A stretch of 63,684 bases of DNA, counting the filler, from Globobulimina sp. (lineage: Eukaryota): NCBI GenBank assembly GCA_003354225.1. It is 29 parts of 29 records of this genome, joined end to end, with 100 filler letters (N's around TTAATTAATTAA, not from the genome) between each part and the next. Parts side by side here need not be neighbours in the genome. Positions count along the whole stretch, not along the records: positions 33,003 to 35,101 come from PIVH01009004.1; 28 more parts are not named here. One strand, 5' to 3'. The position numbers and the translations under genes were made by a program. The stretch's first letter is position 1; each line of letters starts with the position of its first letter. Shown in pieces: positions 6,732 through 43,413 of this stretch. A model generated the notes under the pieces. That model worked only from the letters and a program-made list of their open reading frames with translations, was not told the origin of the DNA and did no database searches.

Positions 6732-8531
6732 TTATGTATGACTATTAACCACAGTAATTGTTGTACTATTCGAAAACAAACCAGCTCCACTTTTTGTTGA
6801 AGTGGATGATAATACGTCGTCGACCGTTATACTATTCGCTAATCGCCTGATTGTTTTGGACTGCCTGTGTCCTGCATCAACGAAAACAAATCCATCAACA
6901 ACGCTGTTATCCGCTCCCATCATAATCTCATTACAATACGTATTTGCCTTTATTTTACATGATAAGTACGTTGGATATTTAGCAAAATTTCTCTGTGAGC
7001 GCATTGTTTCAGTTGCATTAAATCCGCCATACATTCTAATATTTTCCTCCATAATGAACGATCTGTGTTGTGCTGCGACTTTCCCCTTTTTAGCTTTCCA
7101 AAGCGGAATATCAGTCGGCGTATATGTACCTCGCTTGACCCAAATTTCGCCACCACCCACTAATGACAAAAAATCTATACATTCTTGAATTGTAAAAAAT
7201 GCGTAAGTCCATGATGTTCCATCTGTATACGCACTTGCTTTATTACCAATGTCCACAAAACAGATTGTGTCATTGTTGCCATGTGTGTTCGGACGAACAT
7301 CTGTTATGGATCGGATTGTGTTATATGTGTTGTATAGACGATGCAATCTTTCTGTCACATTAAACTGTGACAATGACTGATTAATTGTGCCAGAATCATA
7401 ACTAAACTCAGGTTCAATATAAATATCAGTAGTTATAGATTGATTACTAACTAATTCAGAGTTGATTAAAGCAATGTCGTTACCAAATTGATCAGCATTA
7501 TTATTGTTAAATGTATTATTAATAAATGTGCCAACCACTCCATTGAACAAACATACGGCTCCACCATATATTTTAGCGACGTTATTCTCCATTCTCGAGG
7601 ATGTTAATCTTGGAAACGTTCCGGAAGTTTGACTGTTCCTATCCTCTGCAAATAAGGCACCGCCATATCCGTTGGCCCTATTTCCATCAAATACACACTC
7701 AAAACATTCTAATATTCCGCCATAATCTTGATACAACGCACCGCCTTTTGATTCAGCGAAGTTATTAATGAAAAGTGTATTATGTATCGTAAGATCCGCT
7801 AATTGATAAAAATATATAGCTCCACCATATCCACCTTCATGTTTACCATAAAAAGCTTGGTTGTGTTTGAAATGGGAGTTATTGATGGTTACAGTGACCT
7901 GGTTATTAGTATTGCTGGTAAACCACAAGGCTCCTCCATTAATGGCTGTGTTGTTGCTAAATGTTACATCATTTATATATAATTCTGTGCTAGCTTTGCT
8001 GCTCAATGTTATTAATGCTGCACCATATTTATGGATCATGTTTGTTTGCTTTATCGAATACCCATTACTTATATCATACTGATCATCATTATAATTAGCG
8101 AGACCGTGGCTAATTGTAACTCTGTCTAACGTTAAGATTTGAGAATATGTAATAACATGATAACAATTGTCCGCATGATCACCCCTTATATTGATATCTC
8201 CTGAGATTATTGATGGATGTGTAGCAATTTGATTCGGCCTTTCGTCTTTGGACATTTCATCACCGACAAATCCGCCATAGATTTTGATAGCAACATTTGT
8301 CTGAAAACAATCCGATCTATCGGTGACTGAGGGGTAATACGTCTCGTCTCCTTTTAACCATATTTCATCGTTTGCTTCTTCAGCAATACCTAATGCAACC
8401 TCTAAATCCGTAAATGATTCATTCCAACTTCTTCCATTCCCAGACACATCTAAATTTGATGGGTTTACATAATAAGTTGTGCATTGTACAGTAGATGCTA
8501 ATAACAACAGCGTCGCTGAAATAATTTGCAT
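6732..8531 (-). CDS. Secreted pectin-lyase-fold beta-helix protein with Pmp-like repeats, 3' partial
   Basis: Signal peptide; GGA(L/I/V) and FxxN repeats; two copies of a YV...GxSW..AF..(L/I)..A/C...EIW(L/V)K..TY.P module. Confidence 0.8.
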   Translation of the reverse strand: MQIISATLLLLASTVQCTTYYVNPSNLDVSGNGRSWNESFTDLEVALGIAEEANDEIWLKGDETYYPSVTDRSDCFQTNVAIKIYGGFVGDEMSKDERPNQIATHPSIISGDINIRGDHADNCYHVITYSQILTLDRVTISHGLANYNDDQYDISNGYSIKQTNMIHKYGAALITLSSKASTELYINDVTFSNNTAINGGALWFTSNTNNQVTVTINNSHFKHNQAFYGKHEGGYGGAIYFYQLADLTIHNTLFINNFAESKGGALYQDYGGILECFECVFDGNRANGYGGALFAEDRNSQTSGTFPRLTSSRMENNVAKIYGGAVCLFNGVVGTFINNTFNNNNADQFGNDIALINSELVSNQSITTDIYIEPEFSYDSGTINQSLSQFNVTERLHRLYNTYNTIRSITDVRPNTHGNNDTICFVDIGNKASAYTDGTSWTYAFFTIQECIDFLSLVGGGEIWVKRGTYTPTDIPLWKAKKGKVAAQHRSFIMEENIRMYGGFNATETMRSQRNFAKYPTYLSCKIKANTYCNEIMMGADNSVVDGFVFVDAGHRQSKTIRRLANSITVDDVLSSTSTKSGAGLFSNSTTITVVNSHT

Positions 8532-9140
8532 TGTGGACGAAGAACACGTATCTTTAGATAATATGTGGAGAAAGGAAGAAAGGAAGGAAGAAGATTAAAG
8601 ATTGATAGAAAACAAACTCAAGTCGACTCTGTTGATCATGCATCGCATCAAACACACAGCAAACCATTTGTCCGCAATCACAAATAACAATTTAAACAGT
8701 AAANNNNNNNNNNNNNNNNNNNNNNNNNNNNNNNNNNNNNNNNNNNNTTAATTAATTAANNNNNNNNNNNNNNNNNNNNNNNNNNNNNNNNNNNNNNNNN
8801 NNNTTGAAGGAGAACTGCAAAATCGTATCAAGACCATCGACGCGACTGAACGTGATGTATACTGTATATTTGGTAACATTAATTTGCATCAAGTCACTCA
8901 AATCAAGGGCACTAAGGATCGATCTGTGTTTGTCATGACTTATGGGAAAACACCTCAGTTCCTGCATACATCCAATGTACACGACCTTAACCAATGGAAT
9001 ATACAATCTGACAAAGATGAATTATGAAAAACAATACACATTTATGTAATTTTAAGCTCAAGCAAAAAAAAACTTTTTTAAATCTTAAAGCTTTAAATAA
9101 TGGAACCTTGAAAGGACTTGAATGTTTTAACCGTGTTTTG

Positions 9141-10132: not shown

Positions 10133-10281
10133 TATTTCAATACTAAATAAAAAATAGCGAAGTAACAAAATTGTTTTTTAGCATAAATCACAAAAATCCT
10201 ATTTGCACCTTTTGCAATCCCACTGCCACAACAACAAAAAAATCATAACCAAATCCAATCTAAAAACGCAACCAACCAAAC

Positions 10282-10890
10282 ATGGTCAACAACACCTACG
10301 TGTTAATGGAGTCAGCTTTGGGCTTCTCCCTATTCCGCGTGGTGGAAGCCGAGGAGATCTCGATTAAAGCACTCAGCAAATCGCTCGAAAAATTCAGCAC
10401 GTTCAAAAACATGATCAAATTGGAGTCCTTCCAGCCTTTCACCGACCAGCAGCAAGCCTTGATTTCCATGAACAAGATCTCCGAAGGCCTCTTAGGTGAC
10501 AACTTATTGCTATTCCTCAAGACGTCGATTCCCTCGCTCTCCTCAAAAACGTCAAAGCTCCGAAAATCGGGCGATACCATTTGTTTAGGCGTCTCCGACG
10601 CGAATCTAGGCAATGCCATCTTGGATCAATTTGGAAAATTCAAGAAAAAGCAGTTGTTCTCGTGCCGCTGCGACGACATCGTGCTGGAGATCGTGCGTGG
10701 ATGCCGCGAGTATTTGGGCCGATTCATCGCGGCCACGGCGGACAACTTCAACGCGTCCAACATCGAGCATTCGTACATCGCGTTGGGGCACAGCTATTCG
10801 CGCGCAAAGATCAAGTTTAATGTGAACCGCGTGGACAATATGATAATTCAAGCCATTTGCATGTTGGATCAGATCGATAAGGACATCAAT
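10282..10890 (+). CDS. NOP56: Nucleolar protein 56 (box C/D snoRNP), 5' partial
   Basis: YVLMESALGFSLF N-terminus; LGHSYSRAKIKFNVNRVDNMIIQAI motif. Confidence 0.93.
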
Positions 10891-11063
10891 CTAAAACAGC
10901 TAANNNNNNNNNNNNNNNNNNNNNNNNNNNNNNNNNNNNNNNNNNNNTTAATTAATTAANNNNNNNNNNNNNNNNNNNNNNNNNNNNNNNNNNNNNNNNN
11001 NNNTATCATATAAAACGCTGTTCGCATGCTGAAGCGCCCCCAGCTGACGCACCGAAGGTGCGT

Positions 11064-12272: not shown

Positions 12273-12361
12273 GTTATTGTGCACAAAAATACTACTAAAA
12301 AAAGATGAATTTTTGAAGCAAAGTTTTTTGCAACACACTTTGAAATTTGTCTTATCTAATC

Positions 12362-13103
12362 ATGGCAGACGTTGCTACTGAGACTAAAGGAATGGACGTC
12401 GATTCCGACGAAAAAGACAAAAAAGATGACACCAAAGAAGAGAAAATGCAGATAGATTCCGATGATGAGGAGGAAGAAAAAATAGTCGACCCATCGCCCA
12501 CAAAAGAAATCGAAGAAAAAGTGAATATAATCTTGGCCGAAAGCGCTTCCTTATCCTCCTCCAATATCAGCGACACCATCGAGAAATTATTATATTTAGA
12601 AAAGAAACAACGCCAAGCCGAGCAGGAAGGGAATACCTTATTTATTTGTATATCCATATTGAATTTATGTAAATCCTCTGGTGATTGGAATTTAACCGTC
12701 GAACAAATCGCCATTTTATCCCGACGACGCAGTCAATTTCGAAGGGTCACAATGCGAATGGTTCAATATGCAATGGATTGGTTAGAGACTGAGCAAGATT
12801 TAAAAAACGATAAAAACAAAAAATTAAAATTAATAAACACATTAATAACCGTGACCGAAGGAAAAATATTCGTGGAGGTCGAACGTGCGCGTTTAACCCG
12901 GAAATTGTCGGAAATCAAAGAGAGAGAGGAAGGGAATATCGCCGATGCATGTGATATTTTGCAGGAATTACAAATTGAAACCTTTGGCTCGATGCGCAAG
13001 AAGGAAAAATGCGATTTTTTATTGGAACAATTCAGGTTAAATTTAGCCAAAAAAGATTTTATTCGTGCTATGATTGTACGAAATAAAATCACGGTGAAAA
13101 TCA
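12362..13103 (+). CDS. RPN5: 26S proteasome lid subunit RPN5/PSMD12, 5' partial
   Basis: LEKKQRQAE, VTEGKIFVEVERARLTRKL, ILQELQIETFGSM motifs. Confidence 0.95.
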
Positions 13104-32902: not shown

Positions 32903-33003
32903 NNNNNNNNNNNNNNNNNNNNNNNNNNNNNNNNNNNNNNNNNNNNTTAATTAATTAANNNNNNNNNNNNNNNNNNNNNNNNNNNNNNNNNNNNNNNNNN
33001 NNA

Positions 33004-33132
33004 CAAATATGTTACAATGAAATTGTTGAGAGATTTCCGACCAATACAGATTATACAATATCAGCATCGGTTTTATTGGCTGACATACATGCTTTGTGTC
33101 ATGAGAATAACGAGTCACAAAAAGTGATTTGA
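33004..33132 (+). CDS. C-terminal end of a PPR protein with an E-motif-like segment
   Basis: QICYNEIVERFPTNTDYTISASVLLADIHALCHENNESQKVI* resembles the PPR E-domain pattern (VLLSNIYA). Confidence 0.45.
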   Translation, partial: QICYNEIVERFPTNTDYTISASVLLADIHALCHENNESQKVI

Positions 33133-33282
33133 TGATATACGAAGCAATACAAATGAATTGAAGTAAGTTTTGCAATACTGTTGAACCATGGCAACAAATT
33201 CGTTGTTGAATTGAATTGCCAATAAGCATTGTTTCTTGTTTGTTGACGTTTCGTCTCGTTGTGGACTGTACCATGTGTAACA

Positions 33283-34921
33283 ATGATGAGATGTTTGATG
33301 AAACAACAGCTGAAATCTAAGAAAATTGAGCATGATCAAAAGTTAATGCATTTATGCAAACAAGGAAAGCTAAATGATGGCATACAATTAATGAGCAAAA
33401 TGCTAAAGGAGAATATTCCATTGTCACATTATACATTATCCGCATTATTAAATGGTTGTATTTATAGCAAACATTATAAACAATATAAACTAGTTTGGAA
33501 TAAATGTGTAAATGATTATAACATAAAGCCAAATTTTATTTGTTATTTAACAGCAATTTGTGCAGCAAGTTATTGTGATGATGTAAGGGAAATAAATAAA
33601 TTGATATTAGAAATGAAAACAAATTGCAAACAATCAATATCAATCGAAATGAAACAAATCCATTGGAATCAGTTAATTGATTCATTTGCTCGCATTAATA
33701 ATGTTAATTTAATGTTAAACCAATACGAAAATATGAAATACTATAATTTTAATGGTGATAATTATACAATGTCAATTTTATTGAATACTTTCATTCGATG
33801 TTATGTTTATATATATTTCATTTCATTTTTTCCAGAAATTTCTTTGTGTAATTTTTATTTTACATTCAGGTCAACAATTTGATCATTTTCAAACCTTCCT
33901 AAATGAAATAATTTGCAATGGCGAGAATATAAATAAATATATCGATAATTATGTGTTTGCAGCAATGATTGATGGGATTATAAAATGTGGAAAAGCATAT
34001 TTAATATCGGATATTTGGAATAAGATGGATGGGATTCATAATAAGTTACAATTATTAGACATTAATTGTTATTGTTTGGCTATATTAGCATCGTACCAAT
34101 CAAACAATGAGTATTTAGTGGATAAATTTGTTTCGAAAATTAAAGAAAATTCATTACTGATAAACGAACTAAAAATAAACATTTTATGCTGGAATAAAAT
34201 ATTGACTGCATATGGGAATTTAAAAAATTATACTAAACTTTGGTCGCAATACAATGAAATGAAAAAATATTTAAATCCCGACATCCAATGTTTATGCATT
34301 ATGTTAACATTTGAAAACAGGGAAAAATATCAGTTAATTTTATTAAGTGAGACCAAAACATTTATAACAAATTGGAATGAATTAAAATTGACAAATTATG
34401 GTGAATTAAAAGGGTTATATCGTTCTGCTGTATGCTTAAATGATATTGAATTAAAAACTTTGTTGTGGGATATTTTGCAATTTGAAAGGGATTATGTCGA
34501 TGTTGAAACAAATTGTTATTGGAATGGTAGTAATTACTCATTTAATAATTTATATAACACAGAAAATGCAGAAAATAAACATATATTGAATTTAGTGAAT
34601 AAATTAATTAATAAAACAAGTCATAGAATTGATACAAGTAATTATTATGTTCAAATAGCATCGGATGTCAATACATATAAAATGCTAAAATATCATTCGG
34701 AAAAAAAAGCATTGGCTTTTTTATTGGATAAAATGGATAAAAATAATCATAAAATAAGAGGAACCATTTCAATGATGGTAAACATGCGAATGTGTACCGA
34801 TTGCCATGCATTCTTTTGTCGAGTTTCGCAATTTTATGCCAATGTAATGATAGTTTGCATCGATCCAAAAGCTAAACACATATTTAAAAATGGACATTGT
34901 TCATGTGGTAAACACAGATAA
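33283..34921 (+). CDS. PPR protein with C-terminal DYW-type cytidine deaminase domain (intron 33800-33869)
   Basis: PPR-like repeats (YTLSALLNGC, HWNQLIDSFAR, YVFAAMIDGIIKCG, CWNKILTAYG) plus YHSEKKALAF...NMRMCTDCHAF...HIFKNGHCSCG; the 70-nt GT-AG intron joins the two ORFs in frame. Confidence 0.9.
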
Positions 34922-35543
34922 TATCATTGTTCTGTGGTTCTATTGTTTGCCTTTCACTCAGTGCACAATTTGACGCAACTTCTTTAGAAATTTTAGCTGG
35001 ACAAAATGAAGAAAACCGTCAACTCCATCTAGAATATTGGCGGACTTGAACATGTTTACTGTTCCTCAAAGACAAAACGTATCAAGCAATAAAGCCATAC
35101 ANNNNNNNNNNNNNNNNNNNNNNNNNNNNNNNNNNNNNNNNNNNNTTAATTAATTAANNNNNNNNNNNNNNNNNNNNNNNNNNNNNNNNNNNNNNNNNNN
35201 NGTATTTACAATCAAAGAATATATTTTGGGACACCGCGAGCTGCGCCATTGATACGCATAATATTGATAAGAATGCATCTGCTGCCGATATAATATGGTT
35301 ACATCCAGACAGACACATCGCATTTGGACAATACATATTTATAAATGGCGGTGGCATATATTGAGACATTTTAATGCCAAAAAGGAATTATGTCTCTTAC
35401 AATATCAATCTAGCTGTTTATCCTTTCAATTTTGGATTCTTTCTGTACATATCAATTGATTGTTGATTGAATGTGATAGACCAATGAATGTGTGTTGTGT
35501 TGTATTGTCATTTGTGTGTTTGAAGTTTTTTTGTGAAGTGAGC

Positions 35544-41798: not shown

Positions 41799-43413
41799 AT
41801 TTATCTTTCGCCACAAAACTATAACTAGTCACAGTTTCAATATTACTGTCTTTCACATTCACAGCAAACGGCAAACAGTCATACATATTACTTCCCTGTC
41901 CATCGTAGTTTGTAAATATATTAAATGCATTTGCGAGCGCAGTATTCACCGAGGGTTTGCTCCATCGAGTTGCAGCATACACGCCTCAGAATGAGCAATC
42001 ACTGACGTTATGCAATCATCGCCGCCAAAGTTATATTCCGAGATCGATAATTTTGTATTTGGATAAAAGGAATTGATTAACTGTTTGTACCTTGGTATTA
42101 ATGCAATTTGCGTGTTAATCCATGAAGGATCAGTATAGCCATAGTCATACAATGAACGTGGTGCTTGCAACCGATTTTCAACGTCTTGGGCATTGTTCTC
42201 ATCACATTGATAGGAGGTACCACTGGCCTGTGGGTAATAATGCACATCCATAATATCTAAGATTCGCTCACTATTTGCTTTGTCATAAGCTGCTAATTGC
42301 TGCAAGTAATACACATTCAGCGGCACATTATTTTTTGCTATATAATCAGGACCACCACCGGTACAAAAACCTGCGTCATTATCAGCTCCATCCTCTATTT
42401 ATATATTCATAGTTTCATGCACAAATATATTAATACACACCTACACAAGTAGATATATACCGAAATATCCGCACCATCCCCAAGGTGAGTAGCCAGCAAC
42501 TAAGCATTTATGATCGCATGCTTTTTTTATAGCTGCACCATATACCAACGTATCATGTATAATTTCATCATATGTGCTTCCTTGCGGATGGACATCTCTA
42601 TGTGTACGAGACCATAATGTTGGTTCATTGTCTACTGAAAATATTACAGCACTGTCGGGAAAACTGGCCATCACTGCATTTACAAATGCCGCTGCATCAG
42701 CGGGACTGGTCGGTATTGACGCATCGTTAGGATCATTGCGCACTACATTGGATCCATTCACCCATACACCATTTCCTGCGTCTTTTGCACACCAGGTACA
42801 ATCTGGCGGTTGGTTAGTGCTGCAATGAGGAGTAATATATATTTATTAACAGTATATTTTACAGAGTGATACGTAGTACGTACCATTCGTTAGCTTTCTG
42901 ATCACCATATTTGGGAACACTAAATGACCAAGATTTGACTGCGGTGCCTGAAATCCAACCCATTGCTGGAATCTATTTTTCTGTTTTGATATTTATGCAT
43001 TTTGCTCTGTGGGCAAGAGACCTGAGTCCAAAATGATAGTCCATTTGTTTTTGCTTGTTCGTAATGTTGTTGCCAGGTGAAATCCGCTGCCTGCGTAATA
43101 TAATAATAATCATCAGCAGAGTTTTGTGCATTGATACTATAATTAAATCGGGTGATGGTATTACCACCCAATCGGCCAAGGGTATAATTACCAGCATAAG
43201 CATTGTTCTCACCACTGTATTTATTTATAATTTGTATTAAATATAATTTTGTTTGAAAATTGTAACATACTATGACTGATACATATTCATTCCAAATATG
43301 TATTTAGATACTTCTGCGTTGGTAACATTGGATAAATCGATTGTTGCAGTGTATGAAGCACCATTCGTTGCTGTGAATAGCAAAAATGCAACCACTGTGA
43401 GAGTGTATAACAT
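41799..43413 (-). CDS. Secreted glycoside hydrolase family 44 endoglucanase/xyloglucanase, multi-intron, 3' partial
   Basis: Signal peptide; RLGGNTITRFNY, DNEPTLWSRTHRDVHP (acid/base), WGWCGY, LDIMDVHYYPQ, ISEYNFGG (nucleophile), AATRW. Confidence 0.9.

Follow-up and report, generated by a model that had tools for sequence, protein, structure and literature searches.

What is a gene for a PPR-DYW protein doing in a genome assembly labeled Globobulimina sp. (GCA_003354225.1)? Proteins that combine pentatricopeptide repeats (PPRs) with a DYW domain are the enzymes of C-to-U editing in plant organelles, and an initial annotation of one stretch of this assembly, made from the DNA alone, placed such a gene at positions 33283..34921. 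We examined the locus within the whole stretch of 63,684 nucleotides (nt), hereafter the window. We found a spliced gene whose 522-residue product joins a PPR array to a DYW cytidine deaminase domain with conserved catalytic residues, and whose relatives include proteins of the foraminiferan Nonionella stella. Weighing sequence, structure models, and literature together, we lean toward viewing it as a nuclear foraminiferan gene that encodes a mitochondrial C-to-U editing factor built of about 10 PPR hairpins and a complete DYW deaminase.

Structure of the gene

Two overlapping plus-strand open reading frames (ORFs; 33247..33882 and 33785..34921) lie in different frames, and the initial annotation had joined them through a 70-nt GT-AG intron. 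All elements of that gene model are present where it places them (Table 1). The spliced coding sequence of 1569 nt contains a single, terminal stop codon, while a reading that retains the intron stops at residue 199. The product is colinear with two full-length homologs, P0007 (488 residues) and P0008 (502 residues), and aligns to both with no gap at the junction. The intron splits a Cys codon after its first base, which is the last base of exon 1, and the ends of the intron read GTTATGTT...ACATTCAG.

The frame would stay open with any of four GT..AG pairs (115, 70, 31, and 121 nt). We prefer the 70-nt intron because of the gapless alignment to P0007 and P0008 and because one contig of the public run X3 joins 33799 directly to 33870, at GT..AG ends and without a mismatch across 939 nt of exon 2. 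On its short side, this joint covers 28 letters, just below the 31-letter rule of the tool, and X3 differs in study and organism label from X1, the run that matches the sequence best; other X3 contigs contain the unspliced form. AT-rich GT..AG introns were also inferred elsewhere in the window: one of 66 nt interrupts a gene of glycoside hydrolase family 44 (GH44), and one of 59 nt a gene for an MIT-domain protein. The 70-nt intron is therefore similar in size to others in this assembly.

Pieces of exon 2 (within 34098-34543) also occur in X6, which carries another organism label, comes from another study, and matches in 12 of 30 bins, where identity is 95-99%; none of the matching runs is recorded as RNA, and that X6 represents RNA is a guess. 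The pieces are ~97% identical to the gene, differing at 5 positions in 199 nt and at 5 in 151 nt, which suggests that they derive from a close relative or a second allele.

Table 1. Window positions of the gene, its parts, and the motifs of the encoded deaminase (residues numbered along the spliced product; hairpins counted on a model of the homolog P0008 and transferred by alignment)
Feature	Coordinates	Strand	Content or basis
Gene-bearing contig, 2099 nt	33003..35101		N runs and TTAATTAATTAA linkers at both edges
Exon 1	33283..33799	+	Start codon, basic N terminus, PPR hairpins 1-4 and helix A of hairpin 5
Spliceosomal intron, phase 1, 70 nt, GT..AG, 19% GC	33800..33869	+	Junction evidence
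Exon 2	33870..34921	+	PPR hairpins 5B-10, DYW domain, stop codon at 34919-34921
DYW cytidine deaminase domain, residues 383-522	34499..34918	+	Pfam; structural alignment to OTP86; PDB 7w86, 7o4e, 9kfx
Beta-hairpin at the site of the plant PG box	34505..34546	+	Model strands 212-217 and 220-225; OTP86 alignment
H-S-E: His448 (zinc ligand), Glu450 (catalytic)	34694..34702	+	Start of HSEKK
C-T-D-C-H: zinc ligands Cys481 and Cys484, then His485	34793..34807	+	Motif position
C-terminal H..F..G.CSC: His509, Cys516, Cys518, then G-K-H-R	34877..34918	+	Start of HIFKNGHCSC

Domains and predicted fold

The proposed domain content was borne out by Pfam profiles, both of which score above threshold: in exon 1, PPR_2 is found at 58.7 bits (cut-off 30), and in exon 2, DYW_deaminase (PF14432) at 53.3 bits (cut-off 24; E 2.4e-14) across profile positions 13-91 of 93. 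A sequence search of the PDB yields DYW proteins only, namely, DYW1 (7w86; 5.3e-9), OTP86 (7o4e/7o4f; 8.7e-8), and a synthetic PPR-DYW protein (9kfx; 3.3e-7). In the two printed PDB alignments, HSE, CxDCH, and H..F..G.CSC are aligned with residues of DYW1 and OTP86. The zinc ligands and the catalytic Glu of the DYW fold are intact, as had been claimed, in the motifs HSEKK, CTDCH, and HIFKNGHCSC. In OTP86, the C-terminal H..CxC residues reportedly form a second zinc site.

The PPR array is irregular. By eye, its hairpins range from ~34 to 40 residues, and in a hand alignment several repeats carry a non-canonical D, S, or L at specificity position 5. The N-terminal extension ahead of the first repeat is very short, and the first 15 residues bear a charge of +5/-0. 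The PPR regions at 33421-33783 and 33941-34306 match each other at 23% identity over 123 residues (tblastn, E ~1e-4); this similarity between exons 1 and 2 points to a putative old internal duplication of a repeat block.

An AlphaFold2 model of the exon-2 protein, generated from a 98-row alignment, has a predicted local distance difference test score (pLDDT) of 93.3 and a predicted template modeling score (pTM) of 0.90. It consists, in order, of 14 helices, a beta-hairpin, three helices, a strand, a helix, and two strands. Foldseek returned as the best PDB match 9kfx_A, a PPR-DYW protein with its target RNA (E 1.2e-9), followed by OTP86 and DYW1 (TMt 0.67-0.73). Alignment with VIA-align extends over 317 residues of 9kfx (Z 25.1). 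Within the model, residues 210-349 superpose on the OTP86 DYW domain (825-960) at Z 16.4, with a root-mean-square deviation of 2.7 A over 126 of 136 residues and 28% identity; the corresponding comparison of the exon-2 model with DYW1 gives Z 15.6. Because of the superposition on OTP86, a complete DYW domain is predicted, including the N-terminal hairpin that bears the PG box in plants. Structures of designer PPR proteins and of PPR10 align to residues 1-209 at Z 15-16. Two helical hairpins of the model occupy the place of the E1/E2 motifs and align with the C-terminal half of 9kfx (chain residues 286-610). The full-length model of P0008, which is 47-49% identical to the window protein, shows 10 helical hairpins followed by a DYW domain (pLDDT 90.9).

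A discrete family with a conserved catalytic center

Searched exhaustively with phmmer, 1.84 billion cluster representatives yielded 376 matches at E<=1e-3, of which 61 reach E<=1e-10 and 25 reach E<=1e-30. The strong matches are mostly proteins of 480-620 residues that span query residues 2-347, covering both the PPR part and the deaminase, and the weaker ones are limited to residues ~240-347. A profile search of a word-indexed database gave seven matches, four of them family members and three plant-type PPR proteins, one of which is plant-named. Together with the alignments and the tree described below, these searches place the gene in a discrete and diverged family of ~500-residue proteins.

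We aligned 15 family members, nearly all full-length, with the two exon products (A1, 17 rows) and set them beside 44 longer phmmer matches that align through the DYW domain only (A3). The consensus of the latter is of the classical plant type: it includes a PG box and terminates in ...CSCGDYW. Pfam DYW_deaminase is detected in all 44 of these comparators, at up to 252 bits, and in 16 of the 17 A1 rows, the exception being the exon-1 piece. The Pfam E_motif (E<=0.01) is found in 27 of the 44 comparators and the Eplus_motif, at the same threshold, in 18; neither occurs in A1 (0/17). Near-invariant in A1 are H433, E435, K436, C460, D462, C463, H464, H488, F490, and G493, and the H, E, C, D, C, and H of the catalytic motifs are near-invariant across 98 aligned sequences. 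Family members are 28-57% identical; near-invariance of the catalytic residues despite this divergence argues that catalysis is probably under selection.

In a quick maximum-likelihood tree of 77 DYW domains (137 columns), we compared 34 family rows, picked for a complete C terminus, with 43 plant-type domains: 41 of the DYW-only matches (P0114 was left out) and two plant-type proteins, P0157 and P0158. The family falls on one side of a branch with an SH-aLRT value of 92, below the star threshold of 95. This separation and the missing Pfam E motifs agree with the non-plant origin that the initial annotation had envisaged. The tree is silent on the donor, since it is unrooted and the comparators are without taxon labels. 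Given its depth and its distance from the best plant-type matches, the family may have arisen without a recent plant-to-protist transfer.

Several other X1, X3, and X4 contigs match the gene only in the HSEKKALAF patch (34686-34732), with 3-7 mismatches, and then diverge; past 34732, the consensus of their loose ends reads, by eye, a family-like I-I-N-V-N in frame. This pattern fits a putative multigene family in the source organism. A tblastn search of the other 28 window contigs found no second PPR-DYW gene.

Two variants within the family deserve mention. In a subgroup that includes P0024, P0032, and P0034, the terminal C-S-C is replaced by a CxxC-like spacing (CSLC, CLLC, or CLSC), which would reshape the C-terminal zinc site. 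P0019, from Nonionella stella, contains an internal tandem duplication of the HAEKKALA helix together with the segment directly ahead of it (A1 columns ~615-690).

Origin of the assembly and of the contig

The window comprises 29 contigs of ~2,100 nt each, arranged in order of decreasing length and joined by N runs and by TTAATTAATTAA, a linker with stops in all six frames. Twenty-eight copies of this linker lie within the N runs at a spacing of ~2,200 nt, against a chance expectation of 0.05. Because the contigs are unlinked, genes adjacent in the window give no linkage evidence.

Among the other contigs, ordinary eukaryotic genes, including those for APC2, PSMD12, NOP5, AP mu, MIT, RCC1, and GOST proteins, reside in long, intron-poor ORFs. 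The fragment of the proteasome gene PSMD12, at 12344-13102, shares 80% identity with its counterpart in Bolivina argentea, 74% with that of Nonionella stella, and 69% with that of Elphidium margaritaceum (EukProt); the next named matches, from fungi and animals, reach at most 53%. With PSMD12 closest to these three foraminiferans, the assembly is, by this sequence marker, foraminiferan, as had been guessed. The PPR-DYW family is likewise present in an independent foraminiferan transcriptome: two of the 10 family representatives checked are Nonionella stella proteins in EukProt (P0009, 515 residues; P0019, 520 residues), and the remaining eight are ENA or Logan predictions.

The earlier appeal to host-like AT content carries less weight. 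The gene's contig is indeed AT-rich, but its neighbors are unlinked to it, and its GC content of 0.273 lies just under that of the other window bins (0.286-0.39). The ends of this contig (33003-33139 and 35028-35099) match longer X1, X3, and X6 contigs with 3-6 mismatches and then diverge; the matching ends may be dispersed repeats at which the assembly broke off. The flanks and the intron of the gene have no repeat in common with the rest of the window. An Rfam scan of the window gave 0 matches, and a scan of the gene's contig for bacterial promoters and terminators, which is not relevant to a eukaryote, gave sites not above those in shuffled sequence.

Proposed function and alternatives

We consider mitochondrial C-to-U editing the likeliest function of the encoded protein. 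Foraminifera have no plastid of their own, and the mitochondrion is the only genome-bearing organelle of the host; it is therefore the expected compartment. In a mechanism modeled on the PPR-DYW factors of plants, Naegleria, and Acrasis, the short basic N terminus would direct import into the mitochondrion, where the solenoid, with its ~10 hairpins, would attach to ~8-10 nt of single-stranded RNA immediately 5' of the C to be edited. Deamination of that C to U would follow in the DYW domain, with zinc held by His448, Cys481, and Cys484 and with Glu450 acting as proton shuttle. We extend this proposal, tentatively and with rather less confidence, to the group as a whole: Foraminifera may possess an ancient and expanded lineage of minimal PPR-DYW deaminases, with ~10 hairpins and no recognizable E1/E2 motifs, PG box, or DYW tail, that performs undiscovered site-specific C-to-U editing in their mitochondria.

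Several observations weigh against an editing role or against parts of the gene assignment. The D-Y-W tripeptide is absent, the protein ending instead in G-K-H-R, and no family member aligned has a DYW C terminus. At the PG-box site the protein reads N-C-Y-W-N-G-S-N-Y-S-F, in which only G and F agree with the consensus PGxSWIEVxGxxHxF given in PMC4202320. No A1 row has a Pfam E or E+ motif, and the family scores 53-61 bits against the DYW profile, far below the plant-type maximum. Given these departures, deaminase activity could differ or be lost. Mitochondrial targeting has the basic N terminus as its sole basis. On the side of the gene model, the splice joint extends for only 28 letters on one side, and X3 is not recorded as RNA; on the side of the host, the contig has the lowest GC content in the window and no linked marker gene. 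Among titles and abstracts searched, we found no paper on a foraminiferal DYW protein or on foraminiferal C-to-U editing. The passages available from the 2023 description of foraminiferal mitochondrial genomes report a conserved cox1 frameshift in Miliolida and do not mention C-to-U editing or PPR proteins.

These departures, together with the silence of the searchable literature (as far as its titles and abstracts show) on foraminiferal editing, would fit an alternative role, in which the protein is a foraminiferan mitochondrial PPR-DYW protein that no longer edits and instead binds, stabilizes, cleaves, or processes RNA or serves as a non-catalytic partner. A precedent of sorts is Acrasis, whose 12 DYW proteins far outnumber its two known editing sites (PMC4202320). 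We regard such a role as unlikely, although it is the strongest of the alternatives: the catalytic His and Glu and both Cys residues have stayed near-invariant in a widely diverged family, and the entire predicted deaminase fold, N-terminal hairpin included, superposes on that of OTP86, which is active.

Contamination is the residual doubt about the gene's contig. Rather than from the foraminiferal nucleus, the contig could come from another eukaryote in the samples, such as prey, a symbiont, a parasite, or a rotifer-like contaminant. It is only 2.1 kb long, without a marker and with the lowest GC of the window, and foraminiferal data sets are seldom axenic, as the 2023 mitochondrial genome paper discusses for contamination in single-cell assemblies; moreover, its nearest Atlas cluster, defined by language-model features and not by alignment, is mostly Rotifera (score 0.94). 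We nonetheless give a foreign source little credence. Members of the family occur in the independent foraminiferan transcriptome, the family stands apart from the 43 best plant-type matches and lacks their Pfam E motifs, and named plant, algal, and animal proteins reach at most ~30% identity, in the DYW domain only. The size and AT-richness of the intron also agree with those of the introns inferred elsewhere in the window.

A similarly slim chance attaches to an active deaminase with a non-organellar substrate, for example RNA of the cytosol or nucleus, nucleic acid of viruses or transposons, or DNA; this reading would suit the very short N-terminal extension, the likeness of the model to a bacterial type VI secretion toxin cytidine deaminase (9c63/7jtu; Z 11.4-11.6), and a weak Pfam Toxin-deaminase match (E 0.0039), but the toxin matches are far weaker than the DYW matches, and the PPR solenoid and the best structural match are those of organellar factors that bind single-stranded RNA.

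Other genes in the window

A few features on unlinked contigs stood out. On the minus strand at 6735-8594, a 620-residue ORF carries Chlamydia polymorphic-membrane-protein repeats (Pfam Chlam_PMP, 43 bits) and could be either a transferred bacterial-type adhesin-like gene or a contaminant contig. The GH44 gene (41949-42842, minus strand), with its inferred GT..AG intron at 42460..42395, belongs to an enzyme family that is mainly bacterial and may represent a domesticated transfer. A single 2.1-kb contig carries, within 292-2101, a C2H2 zinc-finger ORF (minus strand) and a HOOK_N ORF; overlapping the latter in another frame is an ORF with a Condensation domain of the nonribosomal peptide synthetase type (114.6 bits), which runs off the contig end. 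Finally, an ORF for the N-terminal part of NOP5/NOP58 (10264-10902, plus strand) has a GC content at third codon positions of 0.70, compared with 0.24-0.44 in the other genes checked, reflecting either the strong codon bias of a highly expressed gene or a contig of different origin.

Significance and comparison with known systems

Outside plants, the presence of PPR-DYW genes has repeatedly foretold editing that was later found, as in Naegleria and Acrasis (PMC4202320 among the sources). Mitochondrial genomes of foraminifera were first described only in 2023. An intact catalytic center in a diverged multigene family leads directly to the prediction that C-to-U editing occurs in foraminiferal mitochondria. 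If active, these proteins would represent a DYW deaminase that works without a recognizable E1/E2 module, PG-box consensus, or DYW tripeptide, which would be relevant to how minimal a programmable RNA base editor can be.

The nearest precedents by taxonomy are other Rhizaria. Paradinids are reported to have PPR-DYW proteins alongside C-to-U editing (PMC11946409, 2025), and a survey counted 31 DYW domains in Rhizaria and describes the PG box and the DYW tripeptide as variable in non-plants (PMC13386178, 2026). These proteins belong to the same supergroup as ours and likewise keep HxE and CxxC; by description, the paradinid sequences group with fungal ones, with which they have a two-residue deletion in common (PMC11946409). 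The available text of the paradinid paper contains neither "foraminifera" nor "reticulomyxa", and that of the survey neither "reticulomyxa" nor "filosa"; the species of the survey are listed in its Table S10, which may already include foraminiferal DYW domains. Because of these two reports, we rate the novelty of the present family as moderate, lower than the initial annotation implied.

PPR-DYW genes in non-plants have also been described (PMC4202320 among the sources) from Naegleria, Acrasis, Physarum, Acanthamoeba, Malawimonas, bdelloid rotifers, and Laccaria. Those of bdelloid rotifers resemble the window gene in their non-plant, AT-rich hosts and short introns, and it is a mostly rotiferan Atlas cluster that lies nearest to it. 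The Atlas score, however, is not an alignment; in the DYW tree the family forms its own group, and the assembly marker is foraminiferan. Naegleria gruberi, Acrasis kona, and Physarum polycephalum are parallels in that each has a lineage-specific nuclear multigene family of PPR-DYW proteins linked to mitochondrial C-to-U editing. As described, their proteins possess a recognizable E/E+/DYW domain, a PG box, and repeats of the PLS or LS type; in the foraminiferal family, Pfam finds no E or E+ motif, and the PG-box consensus is not apparent.

Further counterparts are the land-plant PLS-E-DYW editing factors, represented by OTP86 (7o4e/7o4f), DYW1 (7w86), and the synthetic 9kfx. The window protein is only 22-31% identical to plant DYW domains, its ~10 hairpins are irregular in length, and its gene has a spliceosomal intron; its family, unlike theirs, is without the Pfam E and E+ motifs (0/17, compared with 27 and 18 of 44), the PG-box consensus, and the DYW tail. 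What the two have in common is the overall architecture, in which a C-terminal DYW domain of ~140 residues follows a PPR solenoid, together with the HxE...CxDCH and C-terminal H..CxC motifs and a predicted fold that matches OTP86 at Z 16.4 and the RNA-bound PPR-DYW protein at Z 25.1.

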